Positions 14,760 through 58,007 of a stretch of DNA of 64,000 nt are shown one piece after another. The notes beneath the pieces are model-generated. The model did not search any database. It had not been told where the DNA came from and saw only the letters and a list, made by a program, of their open reading frames with translations. Both the position numbers and the translations under genes were made by a program. The stretch is from Malacoraja senta (lineage: Eukaryota). How positions within the stretch are numbered: the first letter of the stretch is position 1; every line of letters starts with the position of its first letter. The stretch covers positions 10,728,001 to 10,792,000 of the forward strand of contig CM075989.1 in NCBI GenBank assembly GCA_038087875.1, given 5' to 3'.

Positions 14760-15283
14760 AGGGGCTGTCCCGCTGCGGCGACCTAATTGGTGAGTTTAGG
14801 AGAGTTTGAAAAAGTGTCATGTTGAAGACCTCCTTCGACTATGTGGAAGATCTCCTTCGACCTCCTTGGACTATGTTGAAGACCAGCTTCGACTAGCTTC
14901 AGGAAAATTGGACACCGAATAGTGGAGAGTGAAGACGACCTCCTTCGACCTCCCTTCGACTATGTTGAAAACTATCTTCGACTACCCTCGATTACTTATG
15001 AATAACATGCCGACCTACTACGACCTACCTTAACTAAACCTACGAGTAAAAAAAATATCGATTTTTTCCATGGCGACCTATTTTTATACAAGTGGGCATT
15101 TTTCAGCATGTTGAAAAATACGCCGCAACCTAGCTGAGGCCTCGAGTACGCGGGGACTACTCTTGAGCATGAAGGAGAGTTACAAAGGCCTTCTAGGACC
15201 TCGTGGCGACCATGCTGCGAGTATCAGTCGAGGGCAAACTCTTCTGAACTTGCGGATTAGGTCGCCGCAGTGGGACAGCCCCT
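14760..15283. mobile_element. PIF/Harbinger-type MITE (524 bp)
   Basis: TIRs AGGGGCTGTCCC(G/A)CTGCGGCGACCTAAT; TAA TSD (14757-14759 / 15284-15286); inverted near-copy at 57450-58007. Confidence 0.85.
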
Positions 15284-15286
15284 TAA

Positions 15287-15914
15287 AGGGACCTACTTTG
15301 CGAGTTTAGGAGAGTGTCATGGTCTTGTTGTATCGCCGAAGTAGAACACCTCCTACGACCTCCTTCGACTATGTAGAGAACCTCCTACGAATATGTAGAA
15401 GACTTCCTAGGACCCTGTAGAAGACCTCCTTCGACTATGTTGAAGACTGGCTTCGACTATCTACGATTTACTCGCTGATGCTCTCTGGAAAATTGGACAC
15501 CGAATAGTGGAGAGTGAAGACGACCACCTTCGACTACCTTCGACTACCTTTGACTAGACTAACACTATCTACGACTACCGTCGATTACCTTCGACTTCCT
15601 TTGATTACCTTTGATTGCCTTTGATTACCTACGAATAACATGCTGACCTACTATGATCCACTTCGACTAAACCTACGAGTAAAGAAATATCGGGTTTTTT
15701 CCATGTCGACCAATTTTGACTCGCGGACAATTTTCAGCATGCTAAAAAATACTCCTCGACCAAACTGAGGCCGCGAGTACGCGGGAACTTCTCTCGAGCA
15801 TGAAGGAGAGTTACAAAGACCTCCTAGGACCACGTGTTGACCATGCTGCGAGTTTAAGTTGAGCGCAAACTCTCCTAAACTCGCCAATTACGTCCCCGCG
15901 GTGGGACAGGCCGT
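15287..15914. mobile_element. Second, related Harbinger-type MITE directly abutting the first
   Basis: Same internal blocks (GAAAATTGGACACCGAATAGTGGAGAGTGAAGACGACC); right TIR GTGGGACAGGCCGT followed by TAA; left TIR partly deleted; shares the TAA at 15284-15286. Confidence 0.8.
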
Positions 15915-23400: not shown

Positions 23401-24166
23401 GATACACCAGCAATACGTATTTTACTCAAGAGTGAGTAATCAAGAATGTATCTGCAGTTGATAGTGTCTCATTGGAATCTTTACTGTCAGCTATGAGTGC
23501 AGGCAAGCCCTGGTTTATCAGCATCTCCAACCTGAGCTATCAGTCTGGCTTTCTGAGTAAGGGAACCAGGGTCCCATTCTAAGACTTGAACACACCACCT
23601 CAGTAGATGCAGCTGTAAGAGTGCTGGACTGTCAACGGAGCAGTGCCTTGGTATGTCCAAAAAGCTCAGCACCATTTTCCCCCTCCACTGCAGTGCCAAG
23701 TATGTCTGGCATTTTCTGCTTTCCTTTCAATCCAAATGCTGAGATATCTATAGACAAATCTGTCAGTGATCTGTGAGCTTATGCATGTTCCCAGTATAAA
23801 TGACTTGCCATTTTAGTAATAAAAAGCAGGAAACGCTGGAAGCACTCAGCAGGCCAGGCAGCATCTGTGGAAAGATATATCAGGTTCTTGAACCAACCCA
23901 TACAACACTGATCATTCTTTGGCAAAGGAACACTACAGATCACGTTGTGCACTATCAAGGGGATGTTTTTTAATCTAACTGTTTTGCAGAGTTGTCTTTT
24001 TTTTCTTTTTTTCTTTTTTACTGTCTTCAGAATTTGTGCATAATTTATGTATAATATAATTTTTTGTGCATTGTTGGAGTATGTGTCTGTGGGCAAGATT
24101 TTGCATTGTATCTGCCACTCGCTATACTTGTGTAAATGGTACAACAACTCGTCTTGACTGGGCGGC

Positions 24167-24585
24167 ACCGGAGGTCTTGGAGAAAACCCACGCAGGTCAC
24201 GTGGAGAACATACAAACTCCATACAGGCAAGCACCCATAGTCAGGATCGAACCCGGGTCACTGACGCTGAACGGCAGCAACTCTAAGGCAGCGCTGTGGT
24301 AGAGTTGCTGCCTTACAGCGCCAGAGCCGCAGGTTCGATCCTGACAACGGGAGCTTGTCTGTACGGAGTTTGTACGTTCTCCCCGTGACCTGCGTGGGTT
24401 TTCTCCGGGATCTCCGGTTTCCTCCCACACTCCAAAGACGTACAGGTTTGCAGGTTAATTGGCTTGGTATAATTGTAAATTGTCCCTGGTGTGTGTAGGA
24501 TAGTGTTAGTGTGCTTGGATTGCCAGTCGGCGCGGACTTGGTGGGCCTGTCTCCACGCCATTACTTGAAACTAAACTAAAACTAA
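24167..24585. mobile_element. Head-to-head HE1 SINE pair
   Basis: Minus-strand 5' part at 24167-24285 and plus-strand copy at 24300-24585, separated by a 14-nt spacer. Confidence 0.85.
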
Positions 24586-25325: not shown

Positions 25326-25585
25326 TTAATGAAGGAACTGCAGATGCTGGAAAATCGAAGGTACACAAAAATGCTGGAGAAACTCAGCGGGTGCAGCAGC
25401 ATCTATGGAGCGAAGGAAATAGGCAACGTTTCGGGCCGAAACCCTTCTTCAGACCCTTCAGTCTGAAGAAGGGTTTCTTCAGACCCTTCAGTCTGAAGAA
25501 GGGTTTCGGCCCGAAACGTTGCCTATTTCCTTCACTCCATAGATGCTGCTGCACCCGCTGAGTTTCTCCAGCACTTTTGTGTTAA
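25326..25585. mobile_element. Fold-back PLE terminal-repeat element with hammerhead-like cores on both strands
   Basis: Long inverted arms; core CTGAAGAAGGGTTTCGGCCCGAAACGTT at 25493-25520(+) and ~25426-25453(-); 8-bp TSD TAACAGTG at 25318-25325 / 25586-25593. Confidence 0.85.
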
Positions 25586-29165: not shown

Positions 29166-30301
29166 TCCGCACTTAATTATTGCAATGCACTTCTATTCAG
29201 CCTGTCATCCAAAACTTTGCAGACCATATGCTTGCCATGTTCTCCATTCACCCAGTATCTATAAAAGATAGACTTTTAAAGATAGCAGAGTCGGGGGATA
29301 TGGGGAGAAGGCAGGAACGGGGTACTGATTGGGGATGGTCAGCCATGATCACATTGAAGGTGGTGCTGGCTCGAAGGGCCGAATGGCTTACTCCTGCACC
29401 TATTGTCTATTAGTGGGGGTCTGATGAGAATGCAGGAAGAATAAAATGAGATGAATGTGGGATTAGTGTAAATGGGTGGCATGGATTTGGTGAGCCAAAG
29501 GGACCTGTTTCCATATTGTATCATGTGGGAAGGAACTGCAGATGCTGGTTTACATTGAAGATAGACACACAATGCTGGAGTAATCAGCGGGACAGGCAGC
29601 ATATCTGGATAGAAGGGAATGGGTAGCGTTTCGGGTCAAGTCTGAAGAAGGGCTCAACCTGAAATGTCATCCGAGTTACTCCAGAATTTTATGATTATCT
29701 CCCATGCTATATCTTTCTGTGAATATGACTTATTGATCTTTGCCTTCTCTTGGTTAAACAAAGTTGTGGTCTCACCTCACCACAACCTCACCCATCTAAT
29801 CTCTAAAATTACCCCCACCCTCTGACATCTCCTAATTCCAGCCTCTCCACCCTCTATAAAGATGTCCATCCCACACTGCTGACCATCCATCCCTTCAGTG
29901 ACCAGAACTCTCAGATCTTAAACCTCTCTCCGCCTTTAAAGAAGGCCCTTGAATCTTCTCTCTGACAAAGCTGTTGACGAACTGCCCTGAGATCTCCATA
30001 AGTGACGTGGCACCAAATCTTTGGTCGACGGTCGGCTACCGTTGCCATGTTGCTGCAAACTGTTTTCATTCAGCATTTTACAAACTGGCGCACATCTATT
30101 TCCAAAATCATTGAATGGGTGGAAAGGGCGGTAAATTAATTAATGGTTTTAATAGAGAATCTCCTCCCTCTAGGGAGGGTCTCCTGGTTCTGATTGTGTG
30201 TTTGCTGACATTATGAGCAGGAGAAAGGCCATGAATCTAATTACTGACCTATTTTTAAAACAGTCTCAATTCCATGGTGATTGGAGAGAGAGCAAAACAG
30301 T

Positions 30302-30449
30302 AACACATTGCCTGCGCCTCTGAAACAGACCACATATTTTGAACGGGGAACTTTCCCTCTTTGAGTACTTGAAGAGACTGCTTCTCGACTCTCACTGGAC
30401 TTTCACACCAAGCTCCTGGGCCTTAGTGAGGAGCTGGAGTGCGGGGCCT
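30302..30449 (+). repeat. Left copy of exact 148-bp direct repeat flanking the L1
   Basis: AACACATTGCCTGCGCC...GTGCGGGGCCT, identical by eye to 33378-33525. Confidence 0.95.
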
Positions 30450-33377
30450 AATAAAAATGCGGAGACAATAATAAAATCTCAGAATTTTTAGATAATTGTA
30501 ATCTACCACAATTAGAACGCAGGGAACAAGAGGAACTGGGAGCACAAATTACTTCTAAGGAGATAGAAGACACAATAAAAACACTAAAAAATGGAAAAAC
30601 ACCAGGACCAGACGGATTCAGTAATGAATTTTATAAATCTTTTTATGATATAGTTACTCCACGATTACAAAAAATGTATACATATGCTTATAAAGAGCAA
30701 AACCTACCTGAAACACTAGCGGAATCAACGATCATATTAATACTTAAAAAAGATAAAAATATAGAAGAACCAGGATCATATAGAGCTATTGCTTTGTTAA
30801 ATACGGATCAGAAAATAATAGCAAAAACATTAGCCAATAGATTAAGCAAGTATGTTAGTAGACTAATACATGAGGATCAAACAGGATTTATACCTAAGAG
30901 ACACTCATTTAATAATTTGAGACGTTTGCTTAACATAATGCATTCACATAAATCTTATGACCAAGAGTTAGCTATCATCTCACTGGACGCAGAAAAAGCG
31001 TTTGATCAAGTAGAATGGGACTATATGATCAAAGTATTGCAAAAATTCCAATTGGGAGAAAACTTTATTGCATGGATAAAACTACTATATAACAAACCTA
31101 CGGCTAGAATACTAACTAATAATATATTATCTTCAAAATTCGAATTATCTAGGGGCAACAGACAAGGATGTTCACTATCACCGCTGTTATTTGCTTTGGT
31201 AATTGAACCCCTTGCTGAAAAAATAAGAACACACTCGAATATTCACGGTTATAACACAAAATATTCAAACAACAAACTATCCCTATATGCTGATGATGTA
31301 CTACTGTACATCACAAAACCACAAATTAGTATACCAAATATATTAAACTTAATTGAGGACTTTGGATCCTTTTCAGGATATAGAATAAATTGGAACAAAA
31401 GTGAAATTATGTCGATTAAACCAAAAGACTCAACACATCTCAGGAAATTCCCTTTTAAAATAGCTATGGAAAAATTCAAATATTTAGGAATTGAGATTAC
31501 TAGAAATTACCATGATATGTTTAAAGCTAATTATAATCCCCTACTTAAGAAATTAAATAATCTGATTAAATTTTGGAAAACACTTCCGATGTCCTTAATA
31601 GGTAGGATAAATGCTATAAAAATGATTTTCTTACCACAAATCCTTTACCTATTTCAATCAATACCTATATATCTCCCAAAAAAGTTTTTCAAAAAACTGG
31701 ACTCAGACATTACAAATTTTATATGGGATTACAAATCCCACAGAATACAAAGAACACACCTTAACAAACGAAAAGAGTTGGGGGGTCTAGCGCTCCCTAA
31801 CTTTATGTATTATAACTGGGCAGTAAATATTAAAAATATGATTCACCTGCTGGACAATTCTGCCCAGCAGGTGGACTGGATTATAATGGAAAAAGGGGAT
31901 TGCTCCCCGAATAATATAGGAGCGATTATTCTCTCTCCAATAAATTTGAATAATAAAAATTATAATAAAAATCCAATTATATATAGCACTATTAGAACAT
32001 GGAAGCAAATAAAACAGAATCTAAAATTAAGAAACCTATCTCTCTTAATACCAATAGTCAATAACCCATCGTTCAAACCTTCAATCATAGATAAAGCATT
32101 TATACAATGGGAAAGAATGGGAATTAAAACGCTCGAAGATCTGTATGAATTAGAAAAATTACTATCATTCCAACAACTACAACTGAAATATAATTTGAAA
32201 AATAATCAATATTTTAAATATATACAAATCTGTGACTATTTGAAAACACACACAAAAGATTATTATAATATGCCTTCCGACTTACTAGATGAAGCAATGA
32301 AGACAAAGGCGGAATCAGTTAATTTAATATCATACTTATATAATATCATCTTAAATATAGAAATACCCACAACAGATGGAATTAGAAGAGATTGGGAACA
32401 AGATCTAGGTATAAAAATTTCAAAAGAGAGTTGGGATAATCATTTATTACAGGTGCATAAATGCTCGATCAACGTACGACATACGCTTATCCAATTTAAA
32501 ACATTACATAGATTATATTATTCAAAAACCAAACTAAATAAAATCTTTCCTAACGTCTCACCAATCTGTGATAAATGTATATGTCAAGAAGCTACCATAG
32601 CACATTCTTTTGTTTTTTGTACAAAAATCCAAAAATTCTGGTTTGAAATATTTGATATTTTTTCAAAATTAATCAAAATAAAACTGGTACCAAAACCAGA
32701 ATGGATTATTTTTGGAATATCGGAAGGTATTCCTGAATTAAACGTGTATCAGAAGAATTTACTCAATTATGGGCTAATAATGGGAAAAAAGCTTATACTT
32801 AAATTCTGGAAAAATGCGCCCACACCAACAATAAAAATGTGGACATCAAATATGTTGGAAACATTACATCTGGAAGAGATGAGATTCCTCCTAGTAGGCA
32901 AAGTAGATCAATTTCAAAAGACGTGGTCTACGTTTTTGGACCTATTACAAGCATGAGGTGCAATAGTAATTTAGAAAAACAAATAAATAAATAAAAGGTA
33001 TCTGGACCTGGTAATGGGAGGTAAAATAAAAACAGACTTGGTTGGTAGTTCCTTCTCTATGAAGTATGGTATAAGAGTTATAATAGAGCGATTGTTCCTT
33101 CTTTCTTTCTCTTTTTTTTTCTAGGGTCTATTTTCTAACTTTACTTCCTTCTCTAACCTCTTTTCTAAGGGGCTTTCTTTTCCCAACACTCTTTTGCACT
33201 TCACAACCTTTGCGCACTTTCTTCACTTTTCTTACTTCTTTCTTTTTCTTTCTTAAAGTTTAAAAAAGTGAAGCGGTACAAAAAATGTATTAATATATAC
33301 GTGTTGTACATTACTGTAATCTACCGTACTTCTAAAAAATTAAAAAAAATAAAAAATAAAAAAAAATAAAAAAAAAA
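30450..33377 (+). mobile_element. 5'-truncated young L1-clade LINE (ORF2 RT plus Cys domain, 3' UTR, poly-A)
   Basis: Sharp AT-rich block, uninterrupted frame from ~30455 to 32956, pyrimidine-rich 3' UTR, A-rich tail ~33333-33377, flanking direct repeat. Confidence 0.95.
30674..32956 (+). CDS. L1 ORF2 remnant: reverse transcriptase plus C-terminal CCHC-type domain; endonuclease and ORF1 lost
   Basis: Motifs YRAIALLNTDQKI, QTGFIPKR, SLDAEKAFD, RGNRQGCSLSPLLF, LYADD, KYLGI and CDKC-x8-H-x4-C. The in-frame upstream KTPGPDGFSNEFYK shows the ATG is internal. Confidence 0.9.
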   Translation: MYTYAYKEQNLPETLAESTIILILKKDKNIEEPGSYRAIALLNTDQKIIAKTLANRLSKYVSRLIHEDQTGFIPKRHSFNNLRRLLNIMHSHKSYDQELAIISLDAEKAFDQVEWDYMIKVLQKFQLGENFIAWIKLLYNKPTARILTNNILSSKFELSRGNRQGCSLSPLLFALVIEPLAEKIRTHSNIHGYNTKYSNNKLSLYADDVLLYITKPQISIPNILNLIEDFGSFSGYRINWNKSEIMSIKPKDSTHLRKFPFKIAMEKFKYLGIEITRNYHDMFKANYNPLLKKLNNLIKFWKTLPMSLIGRINAIKMIFLPQILYLFQSIPIYLPKKFFKKLDSDITNFIWDYKSHRIQRTHLNKRKELGGLALPNFMYYNWAVNIKNMIHLLDNSAQQVDWIIMEKGDCSPNNIGAIILSPINLNNKNYNKNPIIYSTIRTWKQIKQNLKLRNLSLLIPIVNNPSFKPSIIDKAFIQWERMGIKTLEDLYELEKLLSFQQLQLKYNLKNNQYFKYIQICDYLKTHTKDYYNMPSDLLDEAMKTKAESVNLISYLYNIILNIEIPTTDGIRRDWEQDLGIKISKESWDNHLLQVHKCSINVRHTLIQFKTLHRLYYSKTKLNKIFPNVSPICDKCICQEATIAHSFVFCTKIQKFWFEIFDIFSKLIKIKLVPKPEWIIFGISEGIPELNVYQKNLLNYGLIMGKKLILKFWKNAPTPTIKMWTSNMLETLHLEEMRFLLVGKVDQFQKTWSTFLDLLQA

Positions 33378-33525
33378 AACACATTGCCTGCGCCTCTGAA
33401 ACAGACCACATATTTTGAACGGGGAACTTTCCCTCTTTGAGTACTTGAAGAGACTGCTTCTCGACTCTCACTGGACTTTCACACCAAGCTCCTGGGCCTT
33501 AGTGAGGAGCTGGAGTGCGGGGCCT
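33378..33525 (+). repeat. Right copy of the 148-bp direct repeat
   Basis: Begins at the end of the poly-A tail; identical to 30302-30449. Confidence 0.95.
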
Positions 33526-33921
33526 CCTTATTAGTCTGCTCCTGAGCTTCACAAGATGACCGTTCATAGATCCAAGCTTTCGGTTGTCAGGGGAGGGGAG
33601 GAGACTTATTCATTCAGATTGTTTGTCCCTCTTCCAAGCTTATCTTCATGCTAGATGACAAGGGAGAGAGTGCATGTGGTTTCAGCTGGTTTAGAGTTAG
33701 TTAGTTTATGGTCATATGTACTGAGGTCCAGTGAAATGCTTTTTTATTGCCTGCTATCCAGTCGGCGGAAAGACTACACATGATTACAATCAAGCTGTCC
33801 ACAGTGTACCGATGCAGGATAACGGGAATAACGTTATAGTGCAAAATGAAGGCCAGTAAAGTCCGATTAAAGATTGTCCAAGGTCTCCAATGAGGTGGAT
33901 GGTAGGTCAGGACCACTATGG

Positions 33922-52104: not shown

Positions 52105-52670
52105 ACAGGCCGACCCTCCAGTGCAGAGTGGAGCAATGTTGGAGGTGTTCAAGAAGGAACTGCAGATGTTGGAGAATCGAAGGTAGACAAAATTGCTGGA
52201 GAAACTCAGCGGGTGCGGCAGCATCTATGGAGCGAAGGAAATAGGCAACGTTTCGGCCCGAAACCCTTCTTCAGACTGAAACTCAGCGGGTGCGGCAGCA
52301 TCTATGGAGCGAAGGTCTGAGGAAGGGTTTCGGCCCGAAACGTTGCCTCTTTCCTTCGCTCCATAGATGCTGCCGCACCCGCTGAGTTTCTCCAGCAATT
52401 TTGTCTACCTGCAATGTTGGAGGTGCCTCTTACAGGTGAGACATTAAACAAAATCCCTTTCTGCTCCTGTGGATGTGTGTTCAGGTTCACTATGGCACTA
52501 TTTCCTAGGAACAGCAAGTTCTCTATCTTGCCCCGGACAATATTTATTTCTCCCGTGAATGAAGCTAAAATAAAAATTGCTGTGGGATTTGTTGGGCATG
52601 CTGTATCTTTCACACTTGGGATGTCTTCAAAGGGATATGACAGGAGCTATAGAAATGTGCGTCTTTTTAC
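52105..52670 (+). mobile_element. Old Deu-domain SINE interrupted by a fold-back element
   Basis: TGTTGGAGGTGCC...GAGACATTAAAC...ATGGCACTATT...ACAATATTTAT resembles the Deu domain. Confidence 0.55.
52148..52410. mobile_element. Fold-back PLE terminal-repeat element
   Basis: Core CTGAGGAAGGGTTTCGGCCCGAAACGTT at 52317-52344; exact 15-bp TSD GCAATGTTGGAGGTG at 52133-52147 / 52411-52425. Confidence 0.9.
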
Positions 52671-53270: not shown

Positions 53271-54310
53271 TAGACTACACTTCTTCCCACCCTGCTTCCT
53301 GTAAAGACTATCCCCTACTCCCAATTCCTCCGTCTACGCCGCATCTGCGCCCAGGAAGAGGTCTTCCATACTAGATCATTGGAGATGTCCTCGTTCTTTA
53401 GGAAGCGGGGGTTCCCCTCTTCCATTACAGATGAGGCTCTCACTAGGGTCTCCCCGATATCCCGCAGCTCCGCTCTTGCTCCCCCTCCCCCCATTCGCAA
53501 CAAGGACAGAGTCCCCCTTGTCCTCACCTTCCACCCCATCAGCCGTCTCATACAGCATATAATCCTCCAACACTTTCACCACCTCCAACGGGATCCCACT
53601 ACTGGCCACATCTTCCCATCTCCACCTCTTTCTGCTTTCCACAACTCCCTGGTCAACTTGTCCGTTCCCACCCAAACCACCCCCTCCCCAGGTACATTCC
53701 CCTGCAACCGCAGGAGATGCAACACCTGTCCCTTTACCTCCCCCCTCGACTCCATCCAAGGAGCCCAACAGTCTTTTCAGGTGAGCCAGAGGTTCCCTTG
53801 CACCTCCTCCAACCTCATCTACTGTATCCGCTGTTCCAGGTGTCAACATCTGTACATCGGCGAGACCAAGCGCAGGCTCAGCGATCGTTTCGCTGAACAC
53901 CTCCGCTCAGTCTGCCTTAACCTACCTGATCTCCCGGTTGCTCAGCACTTTATCTCCCCCTCCCATTCCCAATCTGACCTTTCAGTCCTGGGCCTCCTCC
54001 ATTGTCAGCATGAGGCCCAGCGCAAATTGAAGGAACAGCACCTTATATTTCGCTTGGGTAGCTTACACCCCAGCGGTATGAACATTGATTTCTCTAACAT
54101 CAAATAGCCCTTGCTTTCCCTCTCTCTCCATCCCTTTCCGCCTCCCAGTTCTCCCACCAATCCTACTGACTCCGACTACACTCTATCTCTGTTCCGCCCA
54201 CTCCCCTGACATCAGTCTGAAGAAGGGTCTTGACCCGAAACATCACCCTTTCCTTCTCTCCAAAGATGCTGCCTGTCCCGCTGAGTTACTCCAGCATTTT
54301 GTGTCTACCC
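53271..54310 (+). mobile_element. 5'-truncated Neptune-type Penelope-like retroelement (RT thumb, Cys linker, GIY-YIG endonuclease, terminal repeat)
   Basis: LDYTSSHPASC and IPYSQFLRLRRIC upstream; ORF 53379..54107 with CNRRRCNTC linker and NLIYCIRCSRCQHLYIGETKRRLSDRFAEH; hammerhead-like core at 54217-54240. Confidence 0.9.
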
Positions 54311-55930: not shown

Positions 55931-57449
55931 GGGCTGGTGGCGGGAGTGGATGCTGGGGTCCCGAGCCGAGAGTAGATTACTCCAGCGCGGGGCCCAATTG
56001 GGAGCTCTCAGCGGCCCAGAGCCTCCGAATCGGCCGCTACAAATCAACGAATCAACCTACTGTCAGCGCCGCCTGTGGCTGGAAATTCAGCGCCGCCAGC
56101 GGTGGAATCCAGTGCTGCGCCGCCGCTGCTGAAGCTAGCTAACGTGGAGGGAGAGCGAGGCAGCGTCAATTACATGAGCCTACGTAATTGACGCTCACTC
56201 TTCCTCCACTGGGCTCAAGACATGCCCCCTTGTGAGGCAGACATGATAGCTGCCTCCCCTGCTGCTTTTTCATTGCAGTTTTATGAAGCGACCAGTGAGC
56301 CTAAATTTAATATATTTATATGTGAAATAAGTTCCCTGGACTATGGAAGGTGAGGATATGTAATGAAGGGGTTTACACACATTACATTGGTGACATACAT
56401 AGAGATAGTAACAGGCACACGCTTATTGCCCGCGCTCCATGCAGTTTCTGAGGGGTTGCGCAATCAGAGGGGAGGCTCAGCTCGTCGCTGCCTCACCTCT
56501 CATCTCTCCCTGTATTTGAAGCGGAGCTGCGCAAATTAGGCGATTTTTACTATAAAAAATGATTAGATTCATATAGAAATGACATTTATAACAGATCAGT
56601 GGAAAAATCTTTATATTTATTTTATTTTATTATTATTTTCCTTTACTTTTCTTAACAGCTATTTTCATTTTTTTTTTTTTTTTTTTCCTTAAATGTTTTT
56701 TTTATTAGATTTTTAAACAAATGTACAATTTACAAGGAAGGGTAGAAAGCTCACACAATTTAAAAAACATTTACACAAAATTATCAAATTAAAATATTAA
56801 CATTTTTATCTATAATATATTCAACCTCCTGCGGTGACCAGCGTTCACAGCTATTATCATTGGGAGTATGACAGGTGAGGCTCTGCCTCCCCTGACCGCA
56901 TGTCCCTGCTGTGTTGTCTTTCTTAAATAACTTTCCCTGACAGAGGTAGCCATTTGAAGGGAAAGTTACATTGCACACCAACTTTGTTTTCAATTAAATC
57001 TACTCTCATCACAAGTCACCTTTAACTTTGTTAGTAATTAATTCTCAATGAAGTGTATTGGGTTTAAATTGCTTTTAAATCACACATTTGTGAGTGAAGA
57101 TGCCTGTGAAACACAAGGGTATATCATTGAATGCTTTAATCAGATGTTGCAATGTTTTTTGCTCTGTAACCTTGGGTCACTAATGCATGGTTAATGTGGT
57201 TGGAGACCCGCTGTAGAAGGCACAGCATTTGTGAGATCGCTGGGGTGTGCCGGAGCTGAAAGCTGTGTTGTTCATTGCGTGCTGTGGCAGAGAAGGCAGC
57301 TGTGGCTGGGGACTTTGCAGTCTTGCTGAATGAGGAAACCAGCAGCGTGCCCTCTGCAATTCATTCCTTACGTTCCCACTGATCGGAGGGCCTGATACTG
57401 GGAGCCAGCGTCTAAACATCCCAGCAGGCATCCGTTGAGAGCAGAGTTA

Positions 57450-58007
57450 AGGGGCTGTCCCACCTACGGCGACCTAATTGGCGAGTTTAGAAGAGTTTGC
57501 CCTCGACTCATACTCGCAGCATGGTCGACACGAGGTCCTAGGAGGTCTTTGTAACTTCATGCTCGAGAGTAGTCCCCGTGTACTCGAGGCCTCAGCTAGG
57601 TCGCGGCATATTTTTTAACATGCTGAAAAATGCCCGCGAGTAAAAAAAGGTTGCCATGGAAAAAATCAATACTTTTTTTACTCAAAGGTTTAGTCGAAGT
57701 AGGTCGTAGTAGGTCGGCATGTTAGTCGTAGGTAATCGAGGGTAGTCGAAGGTAATCGTCGATAGTCTTCAACATAGTCGAAGGGAGGTTGAAGGTGATC
57801 GAAGGAGGTCGTCTTCACTCTCGACTATTCGGTGTCCAATTTTCCTGAAGTTAGTCATAGCTAGTCGAAGCTGGTCTTCAACATAGTCGAAGGAGGTCGA
57901 AGGAGGTCTTCCTCATAGTCGAAGGAGGTCTTCAACATGACACTTTTTCAAACTCTCCTAAACTCTTCTAAACTCGCCAATTAGGTCACCGCAGTGGGAC
58001 AGCCCCT
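57450..58007. mobile_element. PIF/Harbinger-type MITE (558 bp), inverted relative to 14760-15283
   Basis: TIRs AGGGGCTGTCCCAC...GACCTAATTGGCGAGTTTAGAAGAGTTT; TTA TSD at 57447-57449 / 58008-58010. Confidence 0.88.

Follow-up and report, generated by a model that had tools for sequence, protein, structure and literature searches.

A recent, unfixed 5'-truncated L1 copy flanked by exact duplications of 146–148 bp of its target site

How L1 completes the second strand during insertion continues to be described as unresolved (PMC12871754). Most polymorphic human L1 insertions are bounded by a target-site duplication (TSD) of 10–20 bp (PMC12350158), at least one genome survey collected TSDs of 5–30 bp only (PMC2912911), and the usual spacing has been argued to be element-specific (PMC4245944). 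Most long duplications on record are human, arising in engineered or somatic events. TSDs of more than 100 bp never account for above 10% of L1 insertions in HeLa cells and are found in most of those in NER-deficient cells; such large TSDs have been ascribed to a distant nick or to a replication end (PMC5223499, citing Gilbert 2002, 2005). Somatic L1 insertions in human neurons include TSDs above 40 bp, one of them 92 bp long, and polymorphic germline copies have shorter TSDs (PMC4398972).

Here, we describe a natural L1 copy with a 148-bp duplication in a 64-kb window (the whole stretch of DNA that was analysed, 64,000 nt) from the assembly of a non-mammalian vertebrate. With the human insertions from HeLa and NER-deficient cells it shares 5' truncation, an A-tail, a degenerate endonuclease site, and a duplication of more than 100 bp, whereas those events were engineered in cultured cells (PMC5223499) and the copy studied here is a natural one, from a non-mammalian vertebrate L1 family. 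The neuronal insertions are likewise natural L1 copies with TPRT hallmarks and long duplications, but they are somatic and their TSDs are shorter than 148 bp (PMC4398972). HERV-K (HML-2) copies with TSDs of 111 bp and 250 bp are comparable in being germline and polymorphic, with a long duplication shown by the empty site, although their mechanism is integrase-based and retroviral rather than TPRT (PMC5488345). A duplication of 146–148 bp departs from the canonical L1 TSD length (about 7–20 bp) and falls within the long-TSD class (>20 bp) of PMC4245944. L1 duplications above 100 bp are a described minority class and the 148-bp case is unusual but precedented, departing from typical TPRT insertions in TSD length only.

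The insertion and its flanking copies are laid out as follows.

30302–30449, plus strand: left copy of the duplicated target (148 bp), found nowhere else in the window apart from the right copy and single in empty-site contigs
30450–30462, plus strand: 13 extra nucleotides, not L1 sequence of that position, as judged from an X22 contig and the P0121 alignment
30463–32956, plus strand: 5'-truncated L1 ORF2 with RT (YADD), a C-terminal C-x2-C-x8-H-x4-C motif, and a stop codon at 32954–32956
32957–33333, plus strand: T-rich L1 3'UTR
33334–33377, plus strand: A-rich tail with periodic T interruptions
33378–33525, plus strand: right copy of the 148-bp target duplication, running on unbroken into the right flank

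The two copies are identical over exactly 148 bp, as the first-pass annotation of this DNA had claimed, with 0 bases of further extension on either side. Because the right copy opens with two A's that may belong to the tail, the length of the duplication is given as 146–148 bp. The annotation had also placed the copies directly against both ends of the element; this applies to the right copy, which begins immediately after the A-tail, whereas the left copy adjoins the 13 extra bases and L1 sequence starts at 30463. No further match to the 148-mer was found anywhere in the 64-kb window, in which the longest other exact repeat measures 46 bp (a GT microsatellite set aside). Rfam returned 0 matches in the window, so the 148-mer is not a known RNA, and its folding is no better than that of shuffled sequences (z = +1.11). 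Pfam matched 0 of the 100 other open frames of at least 92 residues, and no host exon was thereby identified, a search that short exons would escape.

The insert between the copies (2,928 bp) is a 5'-truncated fish-type L1 composed of an open ORF2 remnant, a T-rich 3'UTR, as also described for zebrafish L1s (PMC5381506), and an A-tail. Its open frame of 833 codons (30455–32953) encodes an RT domain (Pfam RVT_1, E 2e-41) with YADD at residue 278, and the ORF2 remnant contains neither an internal stop nor a frameshift. Residues C705, C708, H717, and C722 of the C-terminal motif are invariant in 9/9 aligned sequences. The best E value was 2.5e-117 against human L1 ORF2p (PDB 8uw3) versus 3e-22 against R2 proteins, and the frame is colinear with the human protein from human residue 428 through its end, with the 5' truncation point at about ORF2 residue 430–440. 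The RT domain and these scores support the L1 identity proposed in the annotation and, judged on the tested features (RT, CCHC motif, A-tailed 3'UTR, no LTRs), the element is a member of the L1 clade. It thus has RT and the C-terminal Cys/His motif in common with human ORF2p. Both ORF1 and the endonuclease domain, which full-length homologues carry as PF03372, are missing from the truncated copy, and it therefore cannot mobilise itself. Its closest near-length protein relatives are 52–53% identical, those named coming from bony fish (for example P0003, named from Salmo trutta, a fish-type L1 ORF2 protein of 52% identity). The closest family protein recovered, P0121, is a fragment with 90–91% identity. 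The repeats around the element suggest a cartilaginous fish as the host. Two other explanations of the flanking repeat were tried and ruled out: an LTR-like or element-owned repeat, since the 148-bp sequence is present at empty sites, and a 3' transduction, since a second tail is lacking and the right copy passes straight into the flank.

No second L1 was found within the 64-kb window. In the public runs X20, X21, and X1, summed contig depth over 30472–33231 of the L1 exceeds the depth over the unique flanks by a factor of thousands; summed contig depths do not equal copy number, and the excess suggests a large family that is common to a relative too. Despite this high depth, the protein search gave no near-length member above 53% identity.

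Among 24 public runs found, four were examined (X20, X21, X1, and X22), as assembled contigs rather than reads and with small-share rows left out; contig data of this kind demonstrate presence, not absence. An empty allele with one 148-bp copy, as anticipated in the first-pass annotation, is crossed by a single contig in three of the four runs, the fourth lacking cover of the flanks. Record 9 of X20 matches 29587–30311 and then 33388–33794 with 1 difference in 1,132 nt, and record 16 of X21 matches 29587–30311 and then 33388–33781 with 0 differences in 1,119 nt. In both records, positions 725/726 are adjacent at the skip, which spans 3,076 bp, that is, 2,928 + 148. X20 and X21 are two near-identical samples from the same study with the same organism label. 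Record 2 of X1, which bears another organism label and whose flank is diverged by about 6%, likewise has one copy and no L1 (skip of 3,074, with 3 letters between). X22 shows no depth over the unique flanks and informs on the L1 family only. The single copy in the diverged X1 relative makes the empty state ancestral; the empty alleles, each with one copy, further show that the repeat is target DNA and that the insertion has not reached fixation.

A prior tandem pair in the empty allele, which the annotation had raised as a possibility, was not seen in X20, X21, or X1, all of which have a single copy. That the repeat pre-existed as such a pair, or that the empty alleles were produced by recombination between the copies, is in our judgement extremely improbable: long direct repeats can indeed recombine and delete the insert between them (PMC5223499), but the X1 relative carries a single copy without the L1, and the L1 itself differs hardly at all from other copies of its family.

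With regard to age, the zero mismatches over 148 bp bound divergence only below about 2%. In an alignment of 1,829 nt, 3 substitutions and 1 gap separate the L1 from the five closest X22 contigs among those listed; X22 also has three pieces with 14–19 differences, which were taken to be other members of the family and excluded. Taken together, the open frame, the empty alleles, and the near-identity to family copies indicate that the copy is very young; the insertion is recent and has not become fixed. The earlier proposal of a recent, possibly polymorphic event thus stands as to youth and lack of fixation, on the evidence of the empty alleles and of the near-identity to family copies, while the identity of the two copies yields only the 2% bound.

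The same contigs bear on whether the duplication is an artefact of assembly or polishing, in which the empty haplotype and a heterozygous L1 with an ordinary short TSD were collapsed into one, some 130 extra target bases being written ahead of the L1 5' end. Empty alleles occur in near-identical samples, and 0 of the 32 contig pieces listed (360,098 more lay beyond the listing) bridge 30449/30450 or 33377/33378, so that the filled allele rests on the assembly. Moreover, the contigs of X20 and X21 cross the target without interruption, where a heterozygote would tend to break them unless the branch had been pruned; they fit animals without the insertion or a pruned minority branch. Reads of 150 bases are common, and 148 is close to this length. 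In contrast, the window contains no N (count 0), the 2.5-kb frame without frameshifts suggests accurate sequence, the right end is clean with its tail-to-target join at an endonuclease-like site, and long duplications have biological precedent. We consider such an artefact unlikely.

The right end also indicates where insertion may have begun.

30298–30303, minus strand: inferred first-nick site, 5'-TGTT/AC, 4/6 to TTTT/AA, top-strand cut between 30301 and 30302

The start of the duplication coincides with both the tail and this degenerate endonuclease-like site. Its score against the mammalian consensus TTTT/AA agrees with the weak fit to the mammalian preference remarked on in the annotation. 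TGTT/a is among the human L1 cleavage sites in Table 4 of PMC5223499. The weak match would also suit a history of two events, either an ordinary L1 insertion followed by a small tandem duplication or repair on the 5' side, or an endonuclease-free patching of a staggered break, and small tandem duplications at L1 sites are known and put down to end processing (PMC11702581). However, the duplication starts exactly at the tail join, the copies are identical, a complete A-tail is present together with a TT primer, and so young an element is unlikely to have suffered another, independent event at the very same base. We regard two events as distinctly unlikely.

At the 5' junction, record 22 of X22 continues for another 357 bases upstream, but its match to the window begins only at 30463, and P0121 (91% identical) aligns only from 30464 and differs just before. 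These alignment starts define 30450–30462 as 13 extra bases. Extra bases are present in 14.6% of human 5'-truncated L1s (PMC2912911). Two candidate origins were found.

32830–32842, plus strand: best candidate template of the 13 extra bases, 12/13 identical, plus one shared A at the L1-body join
33528–33534, minus strand: a second candidate, accounting for the first five extra bases by inverted copying with a primer overlap of 2 nt, chance about 1.7%

The stretch at 32830–32842 is the sole other match with at most 2 mismatches on both strands of the 64 kb and lies in the same orientation within the same L1. The chance of such a match was 0.8–1.4% in Markov simulations, and a composition-matched control gave 11/614. 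In the inverted-copy reading, the first five extra bases are compared with 33528–33532. Both origin tests were post hoc. The internal match suggests that the 13 extra bases derive from this L1 stretch and hence that template jumps took place at the 5' join. Same-orientation multi-piece L1 inserts have been put down to template switching (PMC11702581). No microhomology was found where the end of the duplicated target meets the extra bases or their candidate template.

The first-pass annotation had attributed the long duplication to a distant second-strand nick. The locus fits this proposal, and the product alone cannot separate such a nick from copying-back by the cDNA. Insertion and duplication are very probably real and would have arisen together by one or the other of these routes. 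Of the two, we lean towards TPRT from the TGTT/AC nick with completion at an unusually distant top-strand 3' end. The ORF2 protein would nick the bottom strand at TGTT/AC, providing a two-T primer for the tail, and reverse transcription would start there and cover about 2.9 kb of the RNA. Copying would halt at 30463, where the enzyme may jump to the short L1 template at 32830–32842 and add 13 bases with one change. With no microhomology involved, the cDNA would next be attached to a free 3' end of the top strand, 148 nt downstream. This far break could be a distant nick or the end of a nascent strand at a replication fork, the latter being plausible. Unwinding of the 148-bp duplex between the breaks and fill-in of both strands would leave the duplication.

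The lack of microhomology at the join of target and extra bases is expected of a jump or of ligation to a free end, and both candidate origins of the extra bases are compatible with a free top-strand end at this position. Against completion at a distant end, the template match at 32830–32842 has a competing origin of similar strength, at a chance level of 1–2%, and the nick site reaches only 4/6 of the mammalian consensus. Human ORF2p in vitro needs or prefers a nick close by the end of a duplex that carries a 5' overhang, resembling a lagging-strand template (PMC12503042), and the 148-bp duplex here offers no such nearby end.

The same product as a long TSD could result from a templated insertion, for which no second nick is needed. 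Here, the 3' end of the cDNA would leave the RNA, invade the duplex 148 bp downstream, and copy the top strand up to the first nick, in a manner that resembles synthesis-dependent strand annealing. Copied genomic templates, typically of <250 bp and ≤15 bp from the site, have been described in 22 tumour L1 insertions (bioRxiv 10.1101/2024.08.27.596794). Like these, our locus has a duplicated genomic stretch of <250 bp adjoining the site, its size and place (148 bp, distance 0) are those expected of copy-back, and the 13 extra bases argue that the cDNA end did switch templates. Unlike the tumour insertions, however, the 148-bp copy is exact from the nick, shows no microhomology, and is separated from the L1 body by the probably L1-derived 13-mer (bioRxiv 10.1101/2024.08.27.596794). 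Strand invasion is expected to use microhomology. None was seen between the end of the duplicated target and the 13 extra bases, whose origin is only probable, or their candidate template. Copy-back is possible in our view, if rather improbable, and we retain completion at a distant top-strand end as the preferred reading. On this reading, the insertion is probably a one-off outcome and not the rule of its L1 family.

The window holds several other repeats. A hammerhead-core pattern (CTGA-N-GA, short stem, GAAA) has 13 matches, located in a dispersed repeat, whereas 30 shuffles gave 2.2 on average and at most 6.

6604, 25493, 25881, 29642, 42482, 52317, 54217, 55474, plus strand: hammerhead-like matches
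7313, 25452, 40569, 46571, 52274, minus strand: hammerhead-like matches

These resemble the minimal hammerheads of Penelope-like elements in fishes (PMC4209133), and Rfam at gathering score detected no hammerhead in the window. Next to hammerhead-like repeats, a 277-codon open frame (53274–54104, plus strand) has a weak GIY-YIG match below the Pfam cut-off (E 7e-4) and is probably a remnant of a Penelope-like element. Three near-adjacent inverted pairs of repeat copies (24167–24418, 25363–25582, and 52176–52415) have arms of 101–126 nt that are 84–95% complementary, with spacers of 0, 4, and 38 nt. Related tandem units of 10, 22, and 32 nt occur in opposite orientation at 14792–15805 and 57555–57965 and are up to 97% complementary. 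A T19 tract at 56668–56687, followed by AT-rich sequence that is unique in the window, is possibly the tail of another minus-strand retrocopy. No flanking duplication was found for the T-tracts at 23997 and 56668 (for the latter, within 8 kb).

The nucleosome core comprises 147 bp, close to the 148-bp duplication. An active, high-copy L1 family might regularly complete insertion about one nucleosome away or at the end of an Okazaki fragment; the spacing argument is drawn from one number, and we hold this idea to be very unlikely. If it were true, the distribution of TSD lengths in the family would have an additional peak or a shoulder at about 150 bp, missed by surveys capped at 30 bp, and would reveal in a natural setting how the second-strand step of TPRT proceeds. 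Literature searches, in which coverage of subscription papers was incomplete, returned no matching report on L1 TSDs in fish, cartilaginous fish, or skates, and no matching case for a link to nucleosomes or 147 bp or for unusually long TSDs.

With its empty allele, an outgroup, and a traceable 13-base piece at the junction, this natural case is a clean data point, and it means that L1 can duplicate exon-sized host DNA. A single case leaves the model of L1 insertion unchanged, whereas a family-wide peak in duplication length would alter it.
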